Of a DNA stretch of 64,000 nt, positions 1 to 31,575 are shown piece after piece. A program made the translations under genes and the position numbers. Source of the DNA: Lophium mytilinum (lineage: Eukaryota); contig MU004188.1 in NCBI GenBank assembly GCA_010093605.1, positions 871,673 to 935,672 on the forward strand, read 5' to 3'. How positions within the stretch are numbered: position 1 is the stretch's first letter; the number at the start of each line of letters is the position of its first letter. Under the pieces are notes generated by a model, which made no database searches, was not told the DNA's origin, and was given only the letters and a program-made list of their open reading frames with translations.

Positions 1-1259
1 AACGGAGCAACCGAGATCAGCATTCGACCATATATCCAGAGGTATGCGTTGAATACAACGCTAACGCTCTGCTACGGGATCCGTATGGACGCTGTCTATG
101 ACACTCTTTTACGTGAGATTCTGCATGTGGGATCAGCAATCTCACTCCTTCGGTCGGCTAGCGAGAACTATCAGGATTATATTCCTGCATTGAGGTATCT
201 TCCAAACAACAAGAAGAATGCATACTCCAAAGAATTACGAGGAAGACGGGATGCATATCTGAATCTTCTATTGGATAAAGTCCGTGTCATGATAGACAAA
301 GGGACGGATAAGCCCTGCATCTCGGCGGCTATTCTCAAGGATCAAGAAACAAAGCTCACTGGTGTCGAAGTCAGCTCCATCTGCTTGTCTCTTGTCTCTG
401 GCGGCTTTGAGACCATACCTGGTAGGTTTGAAAAACATACAGTTTACATCTCTGCACTTGAATGCAATTGAGTGAACCACTCCTGCTCATGTGTAGGACT
501 TGTTCTCTTGGATATTCGCTAACATCACTAGGCACTCTTACTTCGTGTATCGGATCGCTCGCAACACCTGAAGGACAAAAGTTTCAGGAACGAGCTTACC
601 AAGACATTAAACGACACTATCCAGACACCGAAGACGCTTGGACTAACAGCTACCAAGAGGAAAAAGTACCATATCTCAATGCCATTGTCAAAGAAGCTGG
701 CCGCTACTACACCGTCAGCTCGATGAGCCTTCCAAGAAAAACAGTTACCGAAGTCATGTGGAATGGTGCCCGAATCCCGCCAAAGACCATGGTCTTGATC
801 AATGCTCAAGCTGGCAATCATGGTAAGTACTACAACTAACTGTGTCTCAAGCCAAGCTCTCTGACACGTCTAGATACCGATCATTTTGGTCCGACAGCCG
901 ACAAGTTCGATCCCGAGCGGTGGCTCGAAGATCCGTCGGAACGCTCCAATTTCGCGGAAAAGCCATCGCAAGGCCTCGCTCATCTATCATTCGGAGCTGG
1001 AGCAAGAGCTTGTTCTGGGCAGATCATGGCACAGCGTCTTCTCTGCTCTTCGCTCATCCGGATCATCTCGTCATATCGAATCGTGGCAAGCGAGTCAGAG
1101 CCACCAAACACAGACTATATCGATTACAACCAGTTCAAATCGGCTTTGGTAGCGATCCCTCGAGACTTCAAAGTGAAGTTGATTCCTAGAGATAAGGAGG
1201 GTACTGAGGCCTGCCTAGCATCTGCAAAGGCTCGGACTAGCGAGTTCTACAAAGAATAA
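1..1259 (+). CDS. Cytochrome P450, phenylacetate hydroxylase (CYP504)-like; 5' end lies outside the window
   Basis: Exons 1-421, 532-822, 874-1259 joined by GT-AG introns. I-helix GGFET, ExxR (EAGR), PERW and heme motif FGAGARACSG. QRYALNTTLTLCYG resembles the CYP504 family. Confidence 0.88.
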
Positions 1260-1587
1260 TCATGAGACCAGAAGCAAAAGCTGACAGCACTCAAACTTCG
1301 ACAACCACACAAAGGCCAACAAAATTAGAGCATCCTCTACCACGTTAGCACTACTAAGGTTTATGGCCAGCTTAGTCTGCTCTTTAGTTGTTACATCAAA
1401 TTTACATTAAATAAAGTGCCGGCATCTCTATATCACGTGACGATTTCACATCGGTAAGATCTTCAAGACATCTGCAGCTTGCCAGCATATATCAATCACT
1501 GGCCATTCCCTATCCGCTTTTCAACGATTCTCTATCACACACCGTCTTTCGACGTTAGGGCGAAGAAGCCTACAACTACGATGAAGG

Positions 1588-1930
1588 CACACCGACATTG
1601 CGTTCGAGCCCGTGTCGGTGGATTATGTGATTGACGGATATGCTGGAGATCGAAAGAAACGCTTTCCTCGCGTCTGGCTAAGACTGGTATGACTACCTCC
1701 CTCCTCCCGTATCAGGTCTATTGGACTAGTTTCTGAGACTGGCTATGGAGATTCCTGTTATGCAGGGTCGGTATCGGTGAAGTTGGGAGAATGATGGTGC
1801 GATTTGGGATGATCAGAGCGTGTTTCATACTGCGACGCATACCTATGAGGAGTTGAGGTATTCGAGTAAGATTTGTACGGTAAAGTTGGGCGAGCCGTCC
1901 TTCGATCCGGAGAGCTTGGGAAGGAGGGGG
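1588..1930 (+). pseudogene. Relic of a TauD/JLP1-type alpha-ketoglutarate-dependent dioxygenase
   Basis: Colinear motif fragments HTDIAFEPVSVDY, ASG*DWYDYLPPP and LLD*FLRL...QGRYR*SWENDGAIWDDQSVFHTAT...GEPSFDPES, with in-frame stops, a frameshift and a large internal deletion. Confidence 0.75.
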
Positions 1931-2142
1931 AGGGGGATGTACTGTACGAAACAAAGTTCAGGGTCAGGCAACTTGGTCACCAAAGCGGCACCCGACACAG
2001 AATCACGCAAAGCTAGAAATGAATCAAAGTAACTGTATTACATTTGCATGATATACTAGAGTTCTTTCGTAGTATCATGCCTGTCCCAAGTTAGTCTATG
2101 CGTACTACCAAAGTCTGCTAGAACAAAAGACGATGTTGGGGT

Positions 2143-2232
2143 AATTTCAGATCTCCAAGGTGATTGGTTTTGTATCTTCAACGGAAGTTCCTCAGTAAGA
2201 ACACAGCGAAATAAGATTGTTCATCATTGAGT
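2143..2232 (-). ncRNA. Box C/D snoRNA, U55/SNORD55-like, with a second guide for 5.8S rRNA
   Basis: C ATGATGA (2227-2221), D' CTGA (2195-2192), C' TTGAAGA, D CTGA (2150-2147). The D guide TCACCTTGGAGA pairs with LSU UCUCCAAGGUGA. The D' guide ATTTCGCTGTGTTCTT pairs with 5.8S AAGAACGCAGCGAAAU with one G-U pair. Confidence 0.88.
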
Positions 2233-2455
2233 AAGGGGAAGAGGAAGAGAAGAAGAGAATGAGCTTACCAGTCATGGCCCGACCAGCGGGGAAGCACGTT
2301 GTTACCTGCCCCAGCAATGGATGCGTCAGCGAGTGTTCCTTGAAAAGCAATTTGGTATGATGCCAAATGTTAAAAACATGTCAAGGACCATCTGCAATCA
2401 GGCTTTGCGCCTTCGGTTAGCCTCGAACAAGATCCGGAGTATTGTTGAGGATAGC

Positions 2456-2560
2456 ATACCTCATTAAATCAGAATTTTCAGTGTTTACTGCTCATTCCGG
2501 ACATGCCCTCGTTAGGGGCAGCCGGTCACACAGTGTGAATATAGCTTATCATCATAGTAT
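2456..2560 (-). ncRNA. snR51: Box C/D snoRNA, snR51-like
   Basis: C ATGATGA (2555-2549). Guide TATTCACACTG before D' GTGA pairs with LSU CAGUGUGAAUA (yeast Um2729 site). Guide ACACTGAAAAT before CTGA (2472-2469) pairs with AUUUUCAGUGU. CTGATTTAATGAG is complementary to SSU CUCAUUAAAUCAG. Confidence 0.85.
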
Positions 2561-2669
2561 AGATGGCCCGTTGATCGAAAGGGAAGAAAAATATGTACCT
2601 TTGAAATCTAGTCCAAGGTTAGTTGGGTCCATTGATGAGACGCGATGGAATAATTGTTCGTGTCAGTCG

Positions 2670-2806
2670 GTAATCAGAATACGCTGTTCTCAACAAGTAC
2701 ATCCCCAGACCGAGCACCCACAGAGTTTGTACGCTCTGCTTTTTGCGGATGCTAGCCTAACGACGACGATCTGCCCGCCCATCGCGTTGGGGTATCATCA
2801 TATAGA
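2670..2806 (-). ncRNA. snR70: Box C/D snoRNA, snR70-like
   Basis: C ATGATGA (2801-2795). Guide GCGATGGGCGG before D' CAGA (2773-2770) pairs with SSU CCGCCCGUCGC, and the +5 rule points to the Cm1639-equivalent. D CTGA (2677-2674). Confidence 0.85.
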
Positions 2807-2915
2807 ATATGTGGCAGGGAATTTGGAAGATTGGGAGGAGTATATGTACCTAGTCGAAGAGAGGCGTTAGCTATGCTGTCGACGAAATTTGGCATGCAGA
2901 AAATATGTATTGAGG

Positions 2916-3012
2916 AGCAAATCAGACAAGGCTGAAACTAGTTACGGTAGTATCGACAAAATATGTTCAGATTGAGGAATGCCTTTCCATGTCATATTGT
3001 CATCACAATGCT
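2916..3012 (-). ncRNA. snR41: Box C/D snoRNA, snR41-like
   Basis: C GTGATGA (3006-3000), D' CTGA (2970-2967), D CTGA (2925-2922). The 13-nt guide AGTTTCAGCCTTG pairs with SSU CAAGGCUGAAACU (Gm1126-equivalent). Short terminal stem AGCA/TGCT. Confidence 0.88.
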
Positions 3013-3174
3013 TGGGGAGAGAACGAAGAAGGAGAAAGAGCGTGTACCTTTTGAGAGCAACGTTGAGGTCGAAGTTGATGATGGAAGGAGCTGGCTGGAA
3101 AAGAATCTGCGGCAATGTCAATTAGCAAATGAGAACGCAAAGCCTTCTGACAAGGTGCATGAGCATCGCTGGTT

Positions 3175-3249
3175 TGCCTCATGGTTTTAAGGTAGTCCTT
3201 CACGATGTTATAGGAATTGGATTGTTCGTAAGATGTGTAATCATTGGCA
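3175..3249 (-). ncRNA. Probable box C/D snoRNA with a guide to the LSU A-loop region
   Basis: C ATGATTA (3244-3238), D ATGA (3182-3179), terminal stem TGCC/GGCA. Guide GAACAATCCAA pairs with LSU UUGGAUUGUUC. The boxes are degenerate. Confidence 0.6.
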
Positions 3250-3718
3250 GCAGCGGATGCGTTCAAAATTTGCGCTTACCATGAGTGAGTGCCGAGAGCC
3301 AGCTAATGTTAGCTGCGAGACCGCTGCCACTGCCAAAGCGAGGCCATCATATGATAGCAACAACGCGTGGTGATGGCAAAGTTGTGGTGGTGTTGCGGAT
3401 GTTGGGTGGAAGTAAAGCTCCGAGAAAAAGTTCTGCAGTTGACCTGGAGCTGTGGCCGCTAGTCTCGATCAGATAGCGCCAAGATATCACGTGGGTGTCA
3501 GCATCGTCGACGACCTCACGTCTTAGAACTTCGTCTCACCTGGTTGTAAGTGCATTGTTTATGTCTGTTTCCATTCAATTGTCAAGTTTTATTTTATTTT
3601 ATTCTACTTCGTGATATCATACAGACTGTCTGGGCAGATTTGGTGGACTAATTGGACAGCATAGCTAATGAGAGCATGAAAGCCTCCTAGACCCTCGAAA
3701 GGAGAAGGTGTCGTTCCC

Positions 3719-4853
3719 TCACTTCTTCGCACCGTCCAAGTCCGAGTAGAACTTGTATCCGAAGCTACCCGACGGGTCATTGAACCTCAACTTCTTGTCG
3801 ATCGTCTCGATCTTCTTCAAGTCCTCCGCATCCAACTTGAAGTCGCCCTCCAAGTTCGCCTTGATACGCGACTCGGTCTTGCTCTTCGGGATGACTGAAT
3901 GACCGAGCGTGATACCCCATGCGAGCGCGACCTGGGCGCCCGACTTGCCGCCATGCTTCTTGCCGATCTCAACAAGGACGGGGTCATCCATGAGCTTACC
4001 CATGGACTTGCCAGAGTCGTAGATCTCGTTCTGATTGCCAAAGGGGCTGTACTGGGTGACGTGGATGCCCTTCTGCTTGTGCCACTCGATGAAGTCCTTC
4101 TGTTGTAGCCATGGGTGGAGCTCCATCTGGTGGGCGGCAGGGACCTGATCAATGTCAGCAAGAACCTAAGCTCATGCTTATGCACGACGAATCCGTGAAA
4201 CAATGGAAGGTACTTACGACACTCGTCTCCTTGAGTAGCCTCTCCAGCTCTCCCTTGCTGAAGTTGGAAACACCAATCGCCTTGACCTTCCCAGACTCTA
4301 CTAACTTCTCCATCGCCTTGTAGGTGTCGACGAAATCCGTATCTCCCACCTTGAACTTCCCGTTCGAGTCCTTCGGCATCAGCTCCTCACCCCTCGCGAA
4401 CGCCGCCGGCCAGTGCATCAAGTAGAGATCGATGTAGTCGACCCCAAGGTCCTTCAGCGACGCATCGGCCTCCTTCTCCACATCCTCGGGATGATGGCCG
4501 TGATTCCACAGCTTGGTCGTGATGAAGATCTCGCTGCGAGGAACGCCGGAGTGTTTGATAGCTGCGCCGACTGCGGGCTCCGTGCCGTAGATGCGTGCAG
4601 TATCGATGTGGCGGTAACCGGCTTTCAAGGCGGCGATGACGGCAGGCTCTTGTGCCTCCTTGTCCTGCCAGGTGCCAAATCCAATGGCTGGGATGGGAGC
4701 GCCCGTGTTCAGCTTCTGAATAGTGGGTGCCATTTTGACTTGTTTTCGTAGAGTTGTGGTAGAGAAGGAAGAGAAGGAAGGTGTTGTGTTGTGAAGTCGT
4801 GCAGTGAACCGCGGGGCAGATAAAAAGAACGTTCGAGTAGCAGCGGAAGTCAT
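3719..4853 (-). CDS. Aldo/keto reductase (GCY1/YPR1-type)
   Basis: Motifs GFGTW, GYRHIDTA.IY, ITTKLW, DLYLMHWP, IGVSNF, IPKS. One intron, 4217-4145. In-frame ATGs at 4853 and 4733. Confidence 0.95.
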
Positions 4854-5127
4854 TTCTTATGCAATTCTACAAGAGGCGAATGTTACTACATAAATTGACA
4901 CATTTTTCAGTGGGTTCGCCTGCCTCTTTGAAAGCTATCGTCATTGTGGCACTTCTCTAAACTTCAGAATCGATGACGTCGATTGGACGCGGGCTATGTT
5001 GATCTGAAATGCGGCTCCACATCGCGGTCCACCATCACACCATCAAAGTCTGGATTCATCATTCCTGACCAAGCATTTCATACTACCCCTGAATTTTCAA
5101 CATCGGCATATTGCTTTCATAGTCGCA

Positions 5128-15112: not shown

Positions 15113-16964
15113 TCAAGTCCATAGCCACTTCCGGCACTTCTTCGCTCCACAAAGACAGGGCACCGATTCTTGGCTAGGCTGCGAAGACTCCACAGCCTCG
15201 TCATCATCATCCTCCTCCTCATCCTTATCCAGATAGTCGAACGTGAGCTCCTCCATCGCTGGAATGTTGCGACAGGCGAAAAGTGCGATATCGTAGACTT
15301 TGCAGTCGTGTTTGTTGTAGGAGACGGTGTACTGTCTGCAATTTGGCTCGCATGAGTGGTTCATGAACTTGATCGGTCCACCCATGTATTCTCCATCGAC
15401 GACGTAGAGCTCTTCTTGAGACAGCCCTTCTGACTCTGCGAACTTGTCCAGGGAGTAGAGATAACTAGCCTTTGCCTTACCTCCGCTCTCCTCTCGGCGG
15501 GTGGCTTCTTCGTCAGTGATGATCTCGCCACGGTACGTGTCGATAAATTCGCCTTCGCGGAGGTCTTGTTTGGCACGAAGGCCTGCAGGAGTCAGCTTAG
15601 AAACTTATCACAATCAAGGGAAGTACTTACCCCAACCTCTCTTTTTCGTCTTGAAGATTTCTAGCTCAACATGCCGTCCACGCTGGACATTTTTGTTCCG
15701 ACAAAATGGGCCACATGCACAACTGTCGTTGCACTCGTAGATCGGATTTCGCGACCTGAGGTAGAAAGGCACCAAGCAACCAGTCCTGTCCGACGCGTCT
15801 GCGTAATAAGGAAACTTCTTCGGCAATCCAATCGTCGATCCTCCTTCTTCTCGGATCGTCCTGTACTCCTTCTTCTGCTCGTCCGAAAGCCGGGCTTCGT
15901 CAACGCTGGCATACTCAAGACAGTCGCACTTCTTCGTGTACTCGCACCCGATGTTCCTGCCCATGTGCGGCCGACATTGCTGGCAGCCGATCTGCGTCGC
16001 GGGATCTGCTTTGAAAACGCCTTCTTGGAGAACGGACTCTGCGATGAACTTGAAGCGGAGAGATGGAGCGGAGCGGTCGTGGACATTGGAGAGGTGGACC
16101 TTGGCGCCTGGGAGAGCTCGGAGGCGTTGGAGGATTTCGTTGCGGATCATGTTTTCGGCTGTATATGTACTTGAACTTCTTGCCGTCTGAACCATATCTA
16201 GAGTGGGTATATCGGCGACACTGATGCGTGGAATGTCTGGCTGAGTAACCTAGTTCAATTATCAATACAGCTTCTTCACTTCCAAATCCAACAGCTTACA
16301 CTCTTTGCCGTGATAGCGCCTTTGCTCTCCTCAAGGACTCCATTGTATGTCTTTATCTCAGCATTGATCGTTCGCCCAGACGAAGAAGATGACCGCTCGG
16401 TCGACGATGTGGAAGACGCTCGGCTTGACGATAGTAAACGGTTGGCTGGAGATGCTCGACGGTCGATCTCAGTATCAGTGTCCGGAGATTTCCTCTTTCG
16501 GGACGAGTGGCTAATAGAATGTCAATATTAGCGAGATGGATTGACTAGGATACTCTGTAGTGAGGAAATAAATGACTCACGTCTGCTTCGCCTCCAGATA
16601 ATCCTGGACGAGCTCCAAACAATTGACTAGCTCTAGAGGAGTATGCCAGGAGAATACGGGATAGCTGGTTGGCTTTTTAGAAGACCATTTCACCAAATAT
16701 TGCTCCTCCTAGATGCAAATTTAGTAAACCTCACCTATGAGGCGGAACGTCACGTGAGGTTGGAGATTCGTACCTTTTGGTTGTTCACCCTGTTGCAGAT
16801 GACAGAAGCTACCTGGTGAGGTTTCGGTCAGACCAAGTCAGGCCAAAGCCTTGATAATAGGTGAAATGCGAGAGTGGGTGGTCGGGTGCTCTTACATTGT
16901 GATGTTGAACTTTGAGAATCCGCAGCGTCTCTGATCTTATTGGGATTACCACCATTGGTGGCAT
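15113..16964 (-). CDS. dim-5: Histone H3K9 methyltransferase (DIM-5/Clr4/KMT1) with an N-terminal chromodomain-like region
   Basis: Cys-rich pre-SET (IYECNDSCACGPFCRNK), SET (GWGL, NHSCEPN, ELTFDY) and post-SET (CLCGAKKCRKWLW). 5' exons 16964-16896, 16812-16774, 16708-16581 and 16510-16300 splice in frame. Confidence 0.93.
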
Positions 16965-16967
16965 TTC

Positions 16968-17830
16968 CTACAAAACGCGTGTATGTTAGCAAACATGGCT
17001 TAGAATTAGGTTAGACTTATTTTAAGGATAAGAAGGATGCTAAAAACGCGTTGTAAAGCGCTTGTCTAGCTCTTATTGTAATTATTGATATTATTATAGA
17101 TAGAGGCAAACTTACATGTGCGAGACCCCTATTCGTAAAGTACGGTAATAATCACGTATTTATTAGGCAGGCAGCAGGACGCTTTACGTGAGCGCTTTTA
17201 ATGGGAGTTCTTAGAGCGTTGTTAGTAGTAGGTAAGGTGGTTGTTTCTAGAAAGAAGTAAAAGATAACCTAGCTAAGTATAATTAGATGAGCCTATATGA
17301 TTTTACCGAAGTGATACCGGCTTACTAATATACTAGAATTTAAAGAATTTACTACTAGCTTATCTTCTTATCTATATTCTACTAAAGATATAGCTATTAA
17401 ATTTATAGCTTAGATAGTTAACTTGCTTAAATTCTAGATATATTACTAGTCTAGTTCTAATAACTATTTAGCTAAAAGTGTGCTTAAACTTTAATTTAGC
17501 TTAATATAGGGAAAGCATGGCTTGAAGCACCATTAAGTCTTCGCGCGACACAAGCAACAAGCAATGCTTGTCTGGACTGTTGAAGCTGCCGTGGAGCGGT
17601 TTCGGATCGGGTCTAACGGCGTCGAACGGCATCTTTTGCGAGGTGGAAATCTTAAAAGCGCCCTAATCAGAATCCTAGTTCTACTAGTTTCCTTTCTACT
17701 AATACAACCGCTAATTTACTCCGCTTCAAGTTAAATAAATTAGGCTTTTTACTAGTAAGAAGCGTATAGCAAAGATATTCTTGTAGTCGATTTGTAATGC
17801 TACAATTTGTCTAGATTCATGCAATTAAGT
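16968..17830. other. AT-rich patch with a RIP-like dinucleotide signature
   Basis: No CpA on the + strand from about 17177 to 17515, few TpG and very frequent TpA, in contrast to the flanks. Confidence 0.75.
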
Positions 17831-18279
17831 ACAAAAGAGGTTATATTGTTCTAGGCCTACGTTGGATCCTAGAGTTCGTTGAACAAGATAGGTCACTGAA
17901 ACCAAAAAAGTAGTCCAACATATTGGGATTGGTAGTTCCAGGATGCAACGGGAGTCCTATCTCGTGTTTCACCTGGAACGTTTTTAGGCTACAGATCGAG
18001 TCCATGGATTGGTCGGCCAGCACGTCTTGAAAATGCAACCTGTCCATTTGGAAGACGACTTTACGGAGCTCATTATAGTAATCTTTACTCTCGAGAGATT
18101 CAGAATCTGCCTAGTTATTATTTCTAGGGTGTCGGCCGAAACAGGTGTGCAGGGTCTCGGCGTGGCTTTATGCAGCCCTATTCATTGGATTTCTTATCGA
18201 TAACAACCTCGCGGGATTTTCTTCAGCTCTAACGTTCCCGCATCTCGAAAGTTGCAAGACTTCAAAAATATCTACAACC

Positions 18280-19217
18280 ATGGCGTCCACAGCCCAGAAC
18301 ACACCTTTCATAAAGCAGTTCGCTTCTAGCGGTACAAGTTCTCCATCTCTTCCTATCAAGATCATCACCCGCTAATGACTACATCGCAGACAAGCGCATC
18401 CGCGACAAAGCCCTCGACAGCCTCCGAACCTTCCTCAGCGGCCGCTCAAGCATAGAAGAGATCGAGCTACTAAAGCTATGGAAAGGGCTCTTTTACTGTA
18501 TGCCTCTACATCTTAAATCGCCGAAATATGGAGAAGCTCACATACCCCAGGCATGTGGATGAGTGACAAACCCCTCGTCCAGCAACGTCTCGCAGTCGAC
18601 CTCGCCTCTCTAGTCGACACGCTACGCCCCGACGTCGTGCTCCCCTTCCTCGATGCGTTCTGGAAAATTCTGGCGCGGGAGTGGGGAAATATTGACGCGT
18701 TGCGGTATGTCGTACCTGTTCTGCACCAATTCACCGTTCACATTCATATAACAATAAACTAATACATACGACTGTGTCTAGCATGAACAAATTCCTCTAC
18801 CTAATCCGCCAATACCTCTTCGCCTCCTTCCGCTACCTCTCGCGGCACAGCTGGGCTAATACTACTGCAATAACGGGCTGTATGGATGTTCTCGCCGCTA
18901 CACCACTGAATCCTACCGACCCGAAGATCCCGAATGGTATGAGATATCATGTGCTAGATATCTACGTGGATGAGCTGGATCGAGTGGATGCAGATCGGGA
19001 AGGGAAGATGCCGCTTGAGGCGCTGCTGGCGCCGGTTAGGGCATTAGACATGGAGTCGAAAACGAAGGCGGTAAGAAAGAGTGCGAGGGAGGTATTGACG
19101 GATGAGAGGTTGAAAGATTGGAATAAGGTGGAGGAGGGGGCAGACGAGGAGAGCTCCGGAGGTGCTGCTGTTGGCGCTGAGGAGGACGATGGGGAATGGG
19201 GTGGGATTGATGATTGA
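18280..19217 (+). CDS. RRP1: Ribosomal RNA processing protein RRP1/Nop52
   Basis: [37 protein letters not shown]. Three introns. Confidence 0.93.
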
Positions 19218-20106
19218 TATTTGAGGATTGAGGAATGAGGCATGGTCTTCCTGGATCTCTTTGCAGCGAGGCGTTCCGGTTCTCTCTTGGTGTTCAAAAG
19301 CATAATGATACCTAATGGTTGCATTACATGGGGGAATAGTCAAGTAAATATGCAATTTCAATCACTCTTTCTCAACAAGTTTTTATATTATCTAAGTCTA
19401 CAGCAGCTGAGCCCTACGTTCTTGCCACTACCGCATATGCAGAGAGCCTCAATCAGCTGCTGCTGTGCTCAAGCGACGCCGAAGTCGGATTTCGCTCCGT
19501 GGTTCTGCTTCATACTTATGTTCCATGGTTCTGCTCCTTCCAGGTCACTCCATCACCACGACCACTCTCACTGTCCAATAGCGGAAAAGTAATTCCCCCG
19601 ATCACGGAGATATTTTCTTTTCCAGTGCCGTGAAGCTACCACGGTTCTCCAGTCCCCTTCTGACTAAGCAAACTCAGCAGAAAGTACTTACACCTGTCCT
19701 CCCCTCGTCCCTCTTCTCTTCTTTGGCCTCCGGGCCTTCCTTTCTCTCACCCCCAAGATCTCATCCTCTGCATTTTGTATCACCATATTTTTGTATATGT
19801 AGGGCACAAAGGCGGCCCTTGTAGACTATGCTATCTCGACCCTTCCCCGGCCATGTATTCCCACCTTTTGTCACTCTTTCGGGGCAGCGTGTTCATCGAT
19901 ACATAGGCGGAAATGGATCGTCAGAGGAATTATGAGATCTTAGCTGGGAATATGGAGGTTTTGACCCGAGAAGGGTTTCCTCCATCGAATATACAAAGTT
20001 ATTTATGCACGCATGGCTTTTGAAGTGAACTTCGCGAATGTGAACTTATTTTGCCATTGTGTGCTATCGCCAAACTTCGGAAGACACCTATGCACTCACA
20101 AGCCGC

Positions 20107-31361: not shown

Positions 31362-31451
31362 AGCTGAGTGGGAAAGAGGAATTCCGCTGGGCTCATATAC
31401 AACCGCATATATGGCACCCAGAGATCCCCGGATCGAAACCGGGCTCAGCTA
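31362..31451 (+). tRNA. Initiator tRNA-Met(CAT) with an 18-nt intron (31398-31415)
   Basis: Acceptor stem AGCTGAG/CTCAGCT (A1-U72), D stem GGAA/TTCC, anticodon stem CTGGG/CCCAG, CAT at 31394-31396, T loop ATCGAAA (A54/A60). 72 nt after splicing; T-runs follow downstream. Confidence 0.93.
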
Positions 31452-31565: not shown

Positions 31566-31575
31566 NNNNNNNNNN

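Follow-up and report, generated by a model that had tools for sequence, protein, structure and literature searches.

The gene for the silent-chromatin-marking enzyme KMT1 starts within RIP-type AT-rich DNA in Lophium mytilinum and in most sampled Dothideomycete lineages, suggesting self-regulation

It is not settled how cells fix the overall level of their heterochromatin. Transposons, effector genes, and genome stability are controlled in filamentous fungi by trimethylation of histone H3 at lysine 9 (H3K9me3), and we know of no feedback acting on the gene of the H3K9me3 writer in these organisms. In Arabidopsis, the ROS1 'methylstat' relies on a sequence that monitors methylation and lies in a promoter derived from a transposon, and methylation of this sequence activates ROS1. 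The present analysis concerns a 64,000-nucleotide stretch of the Lophium mytilinum genome (contig MU004188.1, positions 871,673–935,672, hereafter the window; coordinates below count from its first letter). Within this window, the kmt1 gene, which codes for a histone methyltransferase that marks silent chromatin, starts inside an island of AT-rich DNA of the kind that such an enzyme normally marks, which suggests self-regulation. The island carries a repeat-induced point mutation (RIP) signature and consists of two patches, Block A and Block B, separated by a spacer. As in ROS1, the promoter of a chromatin enzyme holds the kind of DNA that its own pathway acts on, and ROS1 expression tracks the genome-wide mark; in ROS1, however, the mark is DNA methylation, the enzyme is a demethylase, and a Helitron insertion can still be recognised in the element, whereas the kmt1 patch shows no detectable transposon origin.

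A closer relative in terms of the enzyme is found in Schizosaccharomyces pombe mst2 epe1 mutants, in which H3K9me2 is placed on clr4+, Clr4 falls, the spreading of heterochromatin is restrained, and the mutants thereby recover (Wang, Reddy and Jia 2015, PMC4395908); the available text of that paper bears out the precedent as it had been cited in the first-pass annotation of the window. The enzyme family is the same, and the methyltransferase gene itself bears H3K9 methylation there, which lowers its mRNA and protein. However, according to the same text, the silencing of clr4+ is an epigenetic escape that is confined to the double mutants and lost in wild type, and it covers 5 kb including the coding sequence, with no RIP-type promoter patch described, whereas the candidate element at kmt1 is built into the DNA and shows conservation across the class. 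In Neurospora crassa, peak expression of met-8 and mig-6 requires an adjacent AT-rich H3K9me3 region (PMC4041435). The likeness lies in AT-rich DNA directly upstream of an expressed gene, which in N. crassa carries H3K9me3 and modulates expression; the regions concerned, however, measure 50 kb and 4.2 kb against 0.1–0.9 kb here, their effect is positive, and the genes, as far as the available text goes, are not chromatin-enzyme genes and form no feedback loop. RIP relics and AT-isochores have an identical dinucleotide signature, although the relics described in the accessible part of the source have a repeat or transposon origin and are lineage-specific (PMC7882544). The kmt1 patch differs from them in that no second copy was detected, a gene is transcribed from it, and distant lineages carry a counterpart at the orthologous position. 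In the literature searched, neither a kmt1/dim-5 promoter that is AT-rich or RIP-like nor autoregulation of this gene in filamentous fungi had been reported (PMC9720130 contained no relevant terms, and PMC3945186 was silent on the location of LmDIM5), and the recurrence of such a patch at the 5' end of kmt1 across lineages appears to be new in relation to that literature.

RIP indices (product, TpA/ApT; substrate, (CpA+TpG)/(ApC+GpT); and the composite index) were computed in 300-bp and 1-kb sliding windows, the check that had been proposed in the first-pass annotation, and were compared with the stringent RIPper thresholds (product >1.15, substrate <=0.75, composite >0; PMC7882544). The whole 64 kb gave values of 0.75, 1.19, and -0.44, respectively, with a GC content of 0.516, and only one of the 127 overlapping 1-kb windows passed, namely 17001–18000 (1.56, 0.71, and 0.84; GC 0.366). 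All three thresholds were also passed over the span 16968–17860 (product 1.61, substrate 0.70, composite 0.91, GC 0.356), and by its indices the island therefore belongs to RIP-affected DNA. The annotation had singled out about 340 bp devoid of CpA as the most RIP-like DNA of the window, and this was confirmed. The longest CpA-free run of the window coincides with Block A and measures 341 bp against 177 bp for the runner-up, with a GC content of about 0.3, a TpA/ApT ratio of 1.9, and a substrate index of 0.38. Within it, the interval 17201–17500 (product 1.87, substrate 0.34, composite 1.52, GC 0.28) showed the highest composite index and the lowest GC content among all 300-bp windows. Relative to the numbers expected from local base composition, the interval 17200–17510 contained 0 CpA (12.5 expected), 10 TpG (19.0 expected), and 59 TpA (40.3 expected). 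Block B contains a TpG-free stretch of 138 bp (17644–17782), longer than any other in the window. The two blocks are of opposite strand asymmetry: Block A has lost CpA on the forward strand (CpA 0, TpG 10; G 51, C 36), while Block B shows the reverse bias. Scanning for maximal-scoring segments (+1 per TpA, -1.5 per CpA or TpG, and -0.05 per dinucleotide of any other kind; threshold 8) returned only two segments in 64 kb, corresponding to Block A (score 35) and Block B (score 9.3).

The gene at which this DNA lies is, judged by its predicted product, an orthologue of Clr4/DIM-5/KMT1 (SUV39-type). This assignment is based on its domains (Pfam Pre-SET, 1.3e-11, and SET, 7.1e-22), the C-terminal CxCxxxxC motif of a post-SET cysteine cluster ahead of the stop codon, and its Dothideomycete homologues. 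Pre-SET and SET were both present in all 112 homologues listed, those whose source name includes an organism were all Dothideomycete, and the source names read SUV39H or dim-5. The closest homologue was a protein of Mytilinidion resinicola with 93% identity across the Pre-SET exon. The 42-amino-acid exon at 16583–16708 gave no Pfam match by itself, and a chromodomain (PF00385) was precomputed in four of the homologues (P0005, P0007, P0104, and P0197). The first-pass annotation had placed the RIP-like patch immediately upstream of dim-5, and it does fill the promoter of this Pre-SET/SET gene.

Transcript structure was taken from the contigs of a run (X3) that is labelled as RNA only by a guess, but the contigs nonetheless carry spliced GT..AG joints; their depth cannot rank expression. 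The 2065-nt X3 contig of the reverse strand lacks all introns of the kmt1 model together with a further intron in the 5' untranslated region (5'UTR), and its pieces and joints account for its full length. The canonical 5'UTR intron that had been predicted from the letters alone is skipped at the joint 16966/17115 (cut +1, CT..AC on the forward strand). An in-frame stop precedes the kmt1 ATG (16964), with no intervening ATG. The 5' end of the contig, at about 17239, lies 64 nt within the CpA-free run; it marks where the contig stops and not where transcription has been mapped to begin. Directly upstream of it are about 280 bp of Block A. X3 gave no cover at about 17444–17811, which is not evidence of silence. 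Thus kmt1 is transcribed from within the patch, and the 5'UTR intron is used. As a side observation, splicing of this intron creates an AUG across the junction (17116–17118 joined to 16967 onward, reverse strand), opening a 7-codon upstream frame that overlaps the kmt1 start codon out of frame; this AUG has a pyrimidine at -3, and the main kmt1 AUG has a purine there.

On the other side, the patch adjoins a divergently transcribed gene for a Nop52/Rrp1-type nucleolar protein, whose contig starts 50 bp past Block B. The two blocks and the spacer fill the 1315-bp head-to-head intergenic region (16965–18279) between kmt1 and Nop52. The head-to-head pairing is conserved across Dothideomycetes, being retained in 11 of the related loci described below (L002, L003, L005, L008, L012, L014, L017, L018, L019, L040, and L041); in the more distant L040 and L041 the spacer between the genes is AT-rich yet not RIP-like. 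No Nop52 match was found in loci L001 and L011, and AT-rich DNA adjoins kmt1 there regardless. The AT core was closer to the kmt1 ATG than to Nop52 exon 2 in eight of nine loci, the exception being L012, and in L003 it was about equidistant once the distance from Nop52 exon 2 to the ATG was allowed for. The patch provides kmt1 with its working promoter, which Nop52 shares, and with its 5'UTR; what defines this conserved element is its composition.

To assess conservation, the Pre-SET exon was aligned with 22 homologues and the alignment was used to scan metagenome contigs. This yielded 46 loci, with L001–L019 as clear orthologues. Five of these were dropped for want of upstream DNA (L006, L010, L013, L015, and L016), leaving 14 informative loci, or 11 lineages after close relatives were merged (L004 and L009 are 99.8% identical). 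A complex RIP-signature patch was present just upstream of kmt1 in 11 of the 14 loci, equivalent to eight of the 11 lineages and covering both Dothideomycetes subclasses; the question raised in the first-pass annotation, whether the kmt1 promoters of related fungi form AT-rich islands as well, can therefore be answered in the affirmative, and the maintenance in evolution that is asked of an autoregulatory sensor was observed to this extent. In eight loci spanning 2–13 kb (L002, L003, L004, L009, L014, L017, L018, and L019), the patch was the sole segment and lay 24–351 bp upstream of the kmt1 ATG. L012 contained two segments, one of them upstream of kmt1. L011 carried one 1135-bp block upstream of the gene (3785–4920), and in L001 an AT-rich chain extended from at least 5.4 kb upstream to about 260 bp from the ATG (about 100–5050 of the locus). 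In L001 (Glonium-like) and L011 (Myriangiales-like), kmt1 thus adjoins a large RIP-type block that looks as if it had been enlarged by insertions. L005 showed a weak segment upstream of kmt1 (6.6) and a stronger one elsewhere, and the maximal-segment scan returned no segment in L007 and L008.

The orthologous segments ranged from 95 to 1135 bp or more and consisted of complex sequence, not microsatellites. Observed/expected ratios within the patches were 1.4–1.9 for TpA and 0.1–0.7, mostly 0.1–0.6, for CpA and TpG; because AA/TT was below expectation in most of them, the patches are not poly(A) tracts. Beyond the 5' end of kmt1, only two segments (in L005 and L012) were found in about 150 kb comprising the loci and the window, about 90 kb of which were related loci. 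A comparable complex patch was seen in none of the 16 more distant SET loci examined (from L020–L046), five of which contained short A/T or TA runs of 42–117 bp that scored 8–15.

The sequence of the patch did not align between lineages. In the comparison of L014 with L017, the flanks were about 90% identical and the AT core only 34–52%, which indicates that composition, rather than sequence, has been preserved. Over a shorter distance, the patches of L002 and L009 aligned at 81% identity, with 73 transitions to 28 transversions, a ratio like that of the flanks; this patch is therefore inherited, with no sign of ongoing hypermutation. When k-mers shared across loci were compared with a Markov null, none exceeded it except words of the TTA(C/G)TAA type. 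These belong to a motif with the core GCTTA(C/G)TAA, often completed to a full palindrome by a trailing GC, which has two matches in the window and is present in nine of the 46 loci. It lies 430–620 bp upstream of the chromodomain-exon anchor in the window and in seven loci (L001, L002, L003, L004, L005, L009, and L012), and only two more matches occur elsewhere in the 46 loci. We take GCTTA(C/G)TAAGC to resemble a site of the Yap/AP-1-type basic leucine zipper (bZIP) factors, and the conserved motif hints at a conserved regulator that may act on kmt1 or Nop52. Table 1 gives the positions of these features.

Table 1. Features of the kmt1–Nop52 region in the window, and motif positions (in locus coordinates) with closest named proteins for the orthologous loci
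Feature or locus	Position	Strand	Description
Block A	17175–17516	.	CpA-free, TpA-rich core; maximal-scoring segment 17223–17508; kmt1 promoter and first 5'UTR exon
Spacer	17517–17643	.	127 bp; GC 0.54; composite -0.89; no RIP signature
Block B	17644–17860	.	Weaker RIP-like patch; maximal-scoring segment 17676–17768
kmt1 coding sequence	15113–16964	-	Clr4/DIM-5-type H3K9 methyltransferase; six exons, 511 aa; spliced open frame with GT..AG introns; joints match RNA-derived contig
kmt1 coding exons	16964–16896, 16812–16774, 16708–16581, 16510–16300, 16249–15631, 15582–15113	-	
kmt1 5'UTR intron	16968–17115	-	148 nt; GTAAGT donor, GCTAAC branch-like site, TAG acceptor; GC 0.33; composite 0.70
kmt1 5'UTR exon 1	17116–~17239	-	125 nt of contig left beyond the intron
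Nop52/Rrp1-type nucleolar protein gene	17910–19217	+	Contig start 17910, ATG 18280, stop 19215–19217; Pfam Nop52 6.3e-32; spliced contig
GCTTACTAA motif	17320–17328	.	About 80–90 bp upstream of kmt1 contig 5' end; matches palindromic GCTTA(C/G)TAAGC
L001	motif 4941–4949		Closest named protein Glonium, 91%
L002, L004, L009	motif L002 5026–5036; L004 92–102; L009 893–903		Closest named protein Pyrenophora, 78–86%
L003	motif 4979–4989 and 5095–5103		Closest named protein Alternaria, 91–96%
L005	motif 4997–5005		Closest named protein Setomelanomma, 66%
L007, L008, L012	motif L012 5151–5159		No close named relative
L011			Closest named protein Myriangium or Elsinoe, 48–49%
L014, L017, L018			Closest named protein Cladosporium, 64–75% (L014, L018); L017 by likeness to L014
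L019			Closest named protein Saxophila, 64%

No terminal repeats, target-site duplications, or transposon open reading frames (ORFs) were found at the island; Pfam, repeat, and tandem-array searches upheld the first-pass annotation, which had seen neither transposon ORFs nor termini. The longest pair of inverted repeats had 27-nt arms with 74% complementarity, direct repeats did not exceed 14 nt, and no tandem array scored above 33. The region 16000–19000 contained no tRNA and no Rfam family (E up to 1), and two spacer ORFs of 60–65 amino acids gave no Pfam match. When transitions were tolerated in the alignment, Block A against Block B scored no better than shuffles in either orientation, and the island showed no similarity to the remainder of the window beyond shuffled controls (the best score was 106 and the null maximum 100); when aligned with its own reverse complement, Block A scored 100, compared with 67 +/- 14 for the null. 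A second copy of the island was not detected at >=80% likeness among the source-genome contigs of either run, although the evidence for a single copy is weak, as some records were filtered and RIP-diverged copies may fall below 80%. In both runs, the summed contig depth on the island was that of a single spanning contig with 0 differences, in contrast to 19652–20000, to which several contigs matched. Hence the island does not show the features of a transposon fragment such as a miniature inverted-repeat transposable element (MITE) or a solo long terminal repeat (LTR), and derivation from a repeat with a recognisable second copy, by which RIP-affected DNA is defined as the product of a process, was not seen within the window and the source-genome contigs. 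One outcome named beforehand as fatal to the first-pass proposal was a strain-specific, multicopy transposon fragment absent from orthologous loci; this was not what was found, with no second copy detected at >=80% likeness and patches in eight of 11 lineages. A strain-specific transposon scar is argued against by the lack of a detected second copy and of transposon features, together with the patches at the orthologous place elsewhere.

Several further observations concern the neighbourhood. Nop52 has a 3'UTR intron of 53 nt (GT..AG, 19344–19396) that is skipped in the X3 contig. The interval 19702–19983, about 280 bp just 3' of the Nop52 stop codon, was matched by several other source-genome and X3 contigs, with summed contig depths far above those of the flanks; its GC content is normal and a RIP signature is absent. 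This interval may represent a short element present in multiple copies, similar to a short interspersed nuclear element (SINE) or a MITE, and shorter than the working length of RIP. Across the whole window, Rfam returned only two small nucleolar RNAs (snoRNAs), near 2100–3000. ARAGORN reported a tRNA-like gene at 31362–31451 with an undetermined anticodon, and a run of 10 N (31566–31575) is present about 115 bp downstream of it.

A patch that is AT-rich, TpA-rich, and poor in CpA and TpG is the kind of DNA that is marked by H3K9me3 in filamentous fungi, and given this make-up its most likely role is that of a small heterochromatin-prone patch. Since the 5' end of the contig is inside the patch, any chromatin formed there would sit on the kmt1 promoter. 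The level of H3K9 methylation on the patch would track free KMT1 activity, and this level would in turn feed back on kmt1 transcription. As place and composition are kept while the sequence turns over, either selection on composition or a locus-specific mutation bias is implied, and either of the two points to KMT1-type chromatin. From the make-up and placement of the DNA, self-regulation of kmt1 through H3K9me3 is plausible, and we advance it tentatively. The comparative result described above and published chromatin immunoprecipitation sequencing (ChIP-seq) data lend this interpretation partial support. In Leptosphaeria maculans 'lepidii', LmKMT1 lies inside a domain of H3K4me2 and H3K9me3 (Soyer et al. 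2021, PMC8159818); H3K9me3 there covers 4% of the genome and 70 genes and is otherwise mutually exclusive with H3K4me2, while LmHP1 is euchromatic in both 'lepidii' and 'brassicae'. The available text of that paper mentions the LmKMT1 domains in passing and draws no conclusion from them, and its text supplements contain no mention of KMT1 and do not give the extent of the domain over the gene. For L. mytilinum, methylation of the patch, its effect on kmt1 output, and the direction of this effect are what we infer.

Several points weigh against self-regulation. In L. maculans 'brassicae', LmKMT1 was placed in an H3K4me2/H3K27me3 domain and not in one of H3K9me3 (PMC8159818). Three of the lineages (L005, L007, and L008) have no clear patch, and the patch cores are mostly short (95–290 bp), a size that may not suffice to nucleate H3K9me3. 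The patch gives rise to a spliced transcript and is therefore not simply silenced; as the promoter is bidirectional and shared, the gene that matters could be Nop52. In N. crassa, adjacent AT-rich heterochromatin raises met-8 and mig-6 expression, so that the sign of any effect at kmt1 could be positive. The patches of L002 and L009 have no excess of transitions and thus bear no sign of ongoing C-to-T hypermutation, and the conserved motif would indicate an ordinary, sequence-specific promoter function as well.

Self-regulation can be extended to a Dothideomycete 'heterochromatin-stat', in which free KMT1 would methylate the promoter of its own gene as long as the genome offers few targets, the promoter being left open when a large transposon load titrates the enzyme. 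In such a circuit, the transposon-poor 'lepidii', with H3K9me3 at KMT1, and the transposon-rich 'brassicae', with none, would show the mechanism at work, a fit made after the fact. The composition of the patch would then be maintained by selection for nucleation capacity or by a heterochromatin-linked RIP pathway. This more specific proposal is possible but rather doubtful.

The rival that survives best takes the patch for a promoter that is ordinary, albeit unusual: a region of the Nop52–kmt1 pair that is poor in nucleosomes and binds factors, in which the richness in TpA reflects binding sites and promoter architecture and heterochromatin plays no part. The start region of the kmt1 transcript inside the patch, the conserved head-to-head gene pair, and the fixed relative place of GCTTA(C/G)TAAGC in the window and seven loci all agree with it. 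However, the signature occurred in no other intergenic region of the window and only twice in the roughly 90 kb of related loci. Apart from one motif the sequence is not conserved, AA/TT is under-represented, unlike in A-tract promoters, and H3K9me3 has been reported at the KMT1 gene of L. maculans 'lepidii' (PMC8159818). We consider an ordinary promoter, as the whole account of the patch, to be on the unlikely side.

Alternatively, a local mutation bias may keep the composition without any regulatory use, through recurrent C-to-T change by DIM-5/DIM-2-dependent RIP or by deamination of methylcytosine. A second RIP pathway in N. crassa depends on DIM-5 and DIM-2 and acts preferentially on DNA close to repeats, according to the accessible text of its report (bioRxiv 10.64898/2026.08.11.744009), and could supply such a process. 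Strand-specific C-to-T change predicts opposite asymmetries such as those of Blocks A and B, which give indirect evidence of C-to-T transitions, and large RIP-type blocks occupy the same place in L001 and L011. Nevertheless, no repeat adjoins the patch in the window, the L002/L009 patch lacks a transition excess, and a bias of this kind must explain why one intergenic region was targeted in eight lineages. It would, moreover, itself imply heterochromatin at the kmt1 locus. This explanation appears improbable.

A neutral, functionless relic, left behind when RIP destroyed a small transposon or a duplicated piece of DNA in this lineage, would account for every RIP index threshold being passed and for the size of the island, which at about 890 bp with its spacer exceeds most orthologous cores; for the latter reason, part of the island could be a lineage-specific addition. 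However, terminal repeats, target-site duplications, transposon ORFs, and a second contig at >=80% likeness were all not found; neither was there any transition-tolerant similarity between the blocks or to the remainder of the window. A patch at the same place in eight of 11 lineages and a conserved promoter motif within it are also difficult to reconcile with a relic, which is very improbable and, as the sole explanation, disfavoured. Least credible of all is an AT-rich replication origin between the divergent genes, for although the origins of S. pombe take the form of AT-rich islands, preferentially in intergenic regions between divergent genes, and about one such island was found per 64–75 kb of DNA examined, A-tracts are not enriched here and the retention of one intergenic origin across a fungal class would be unusual.

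Even without feedback, an isolated RIP-signature patch that is kept in place and in composition but not in sequence needs explaining. With self-regulation of kmt1 as the tentatively preferred reading, the patch is a candidate sensor encoded in DNA, which most of the Dothideomycete lineages sampled carry at the orthologous place; several of these lineages are near major crop-pathogen genera. If this is true, single-copy DNA can bear RIP-type composition as a functional signal that is maintained, and such composition would be more than a scar of transposon defence.

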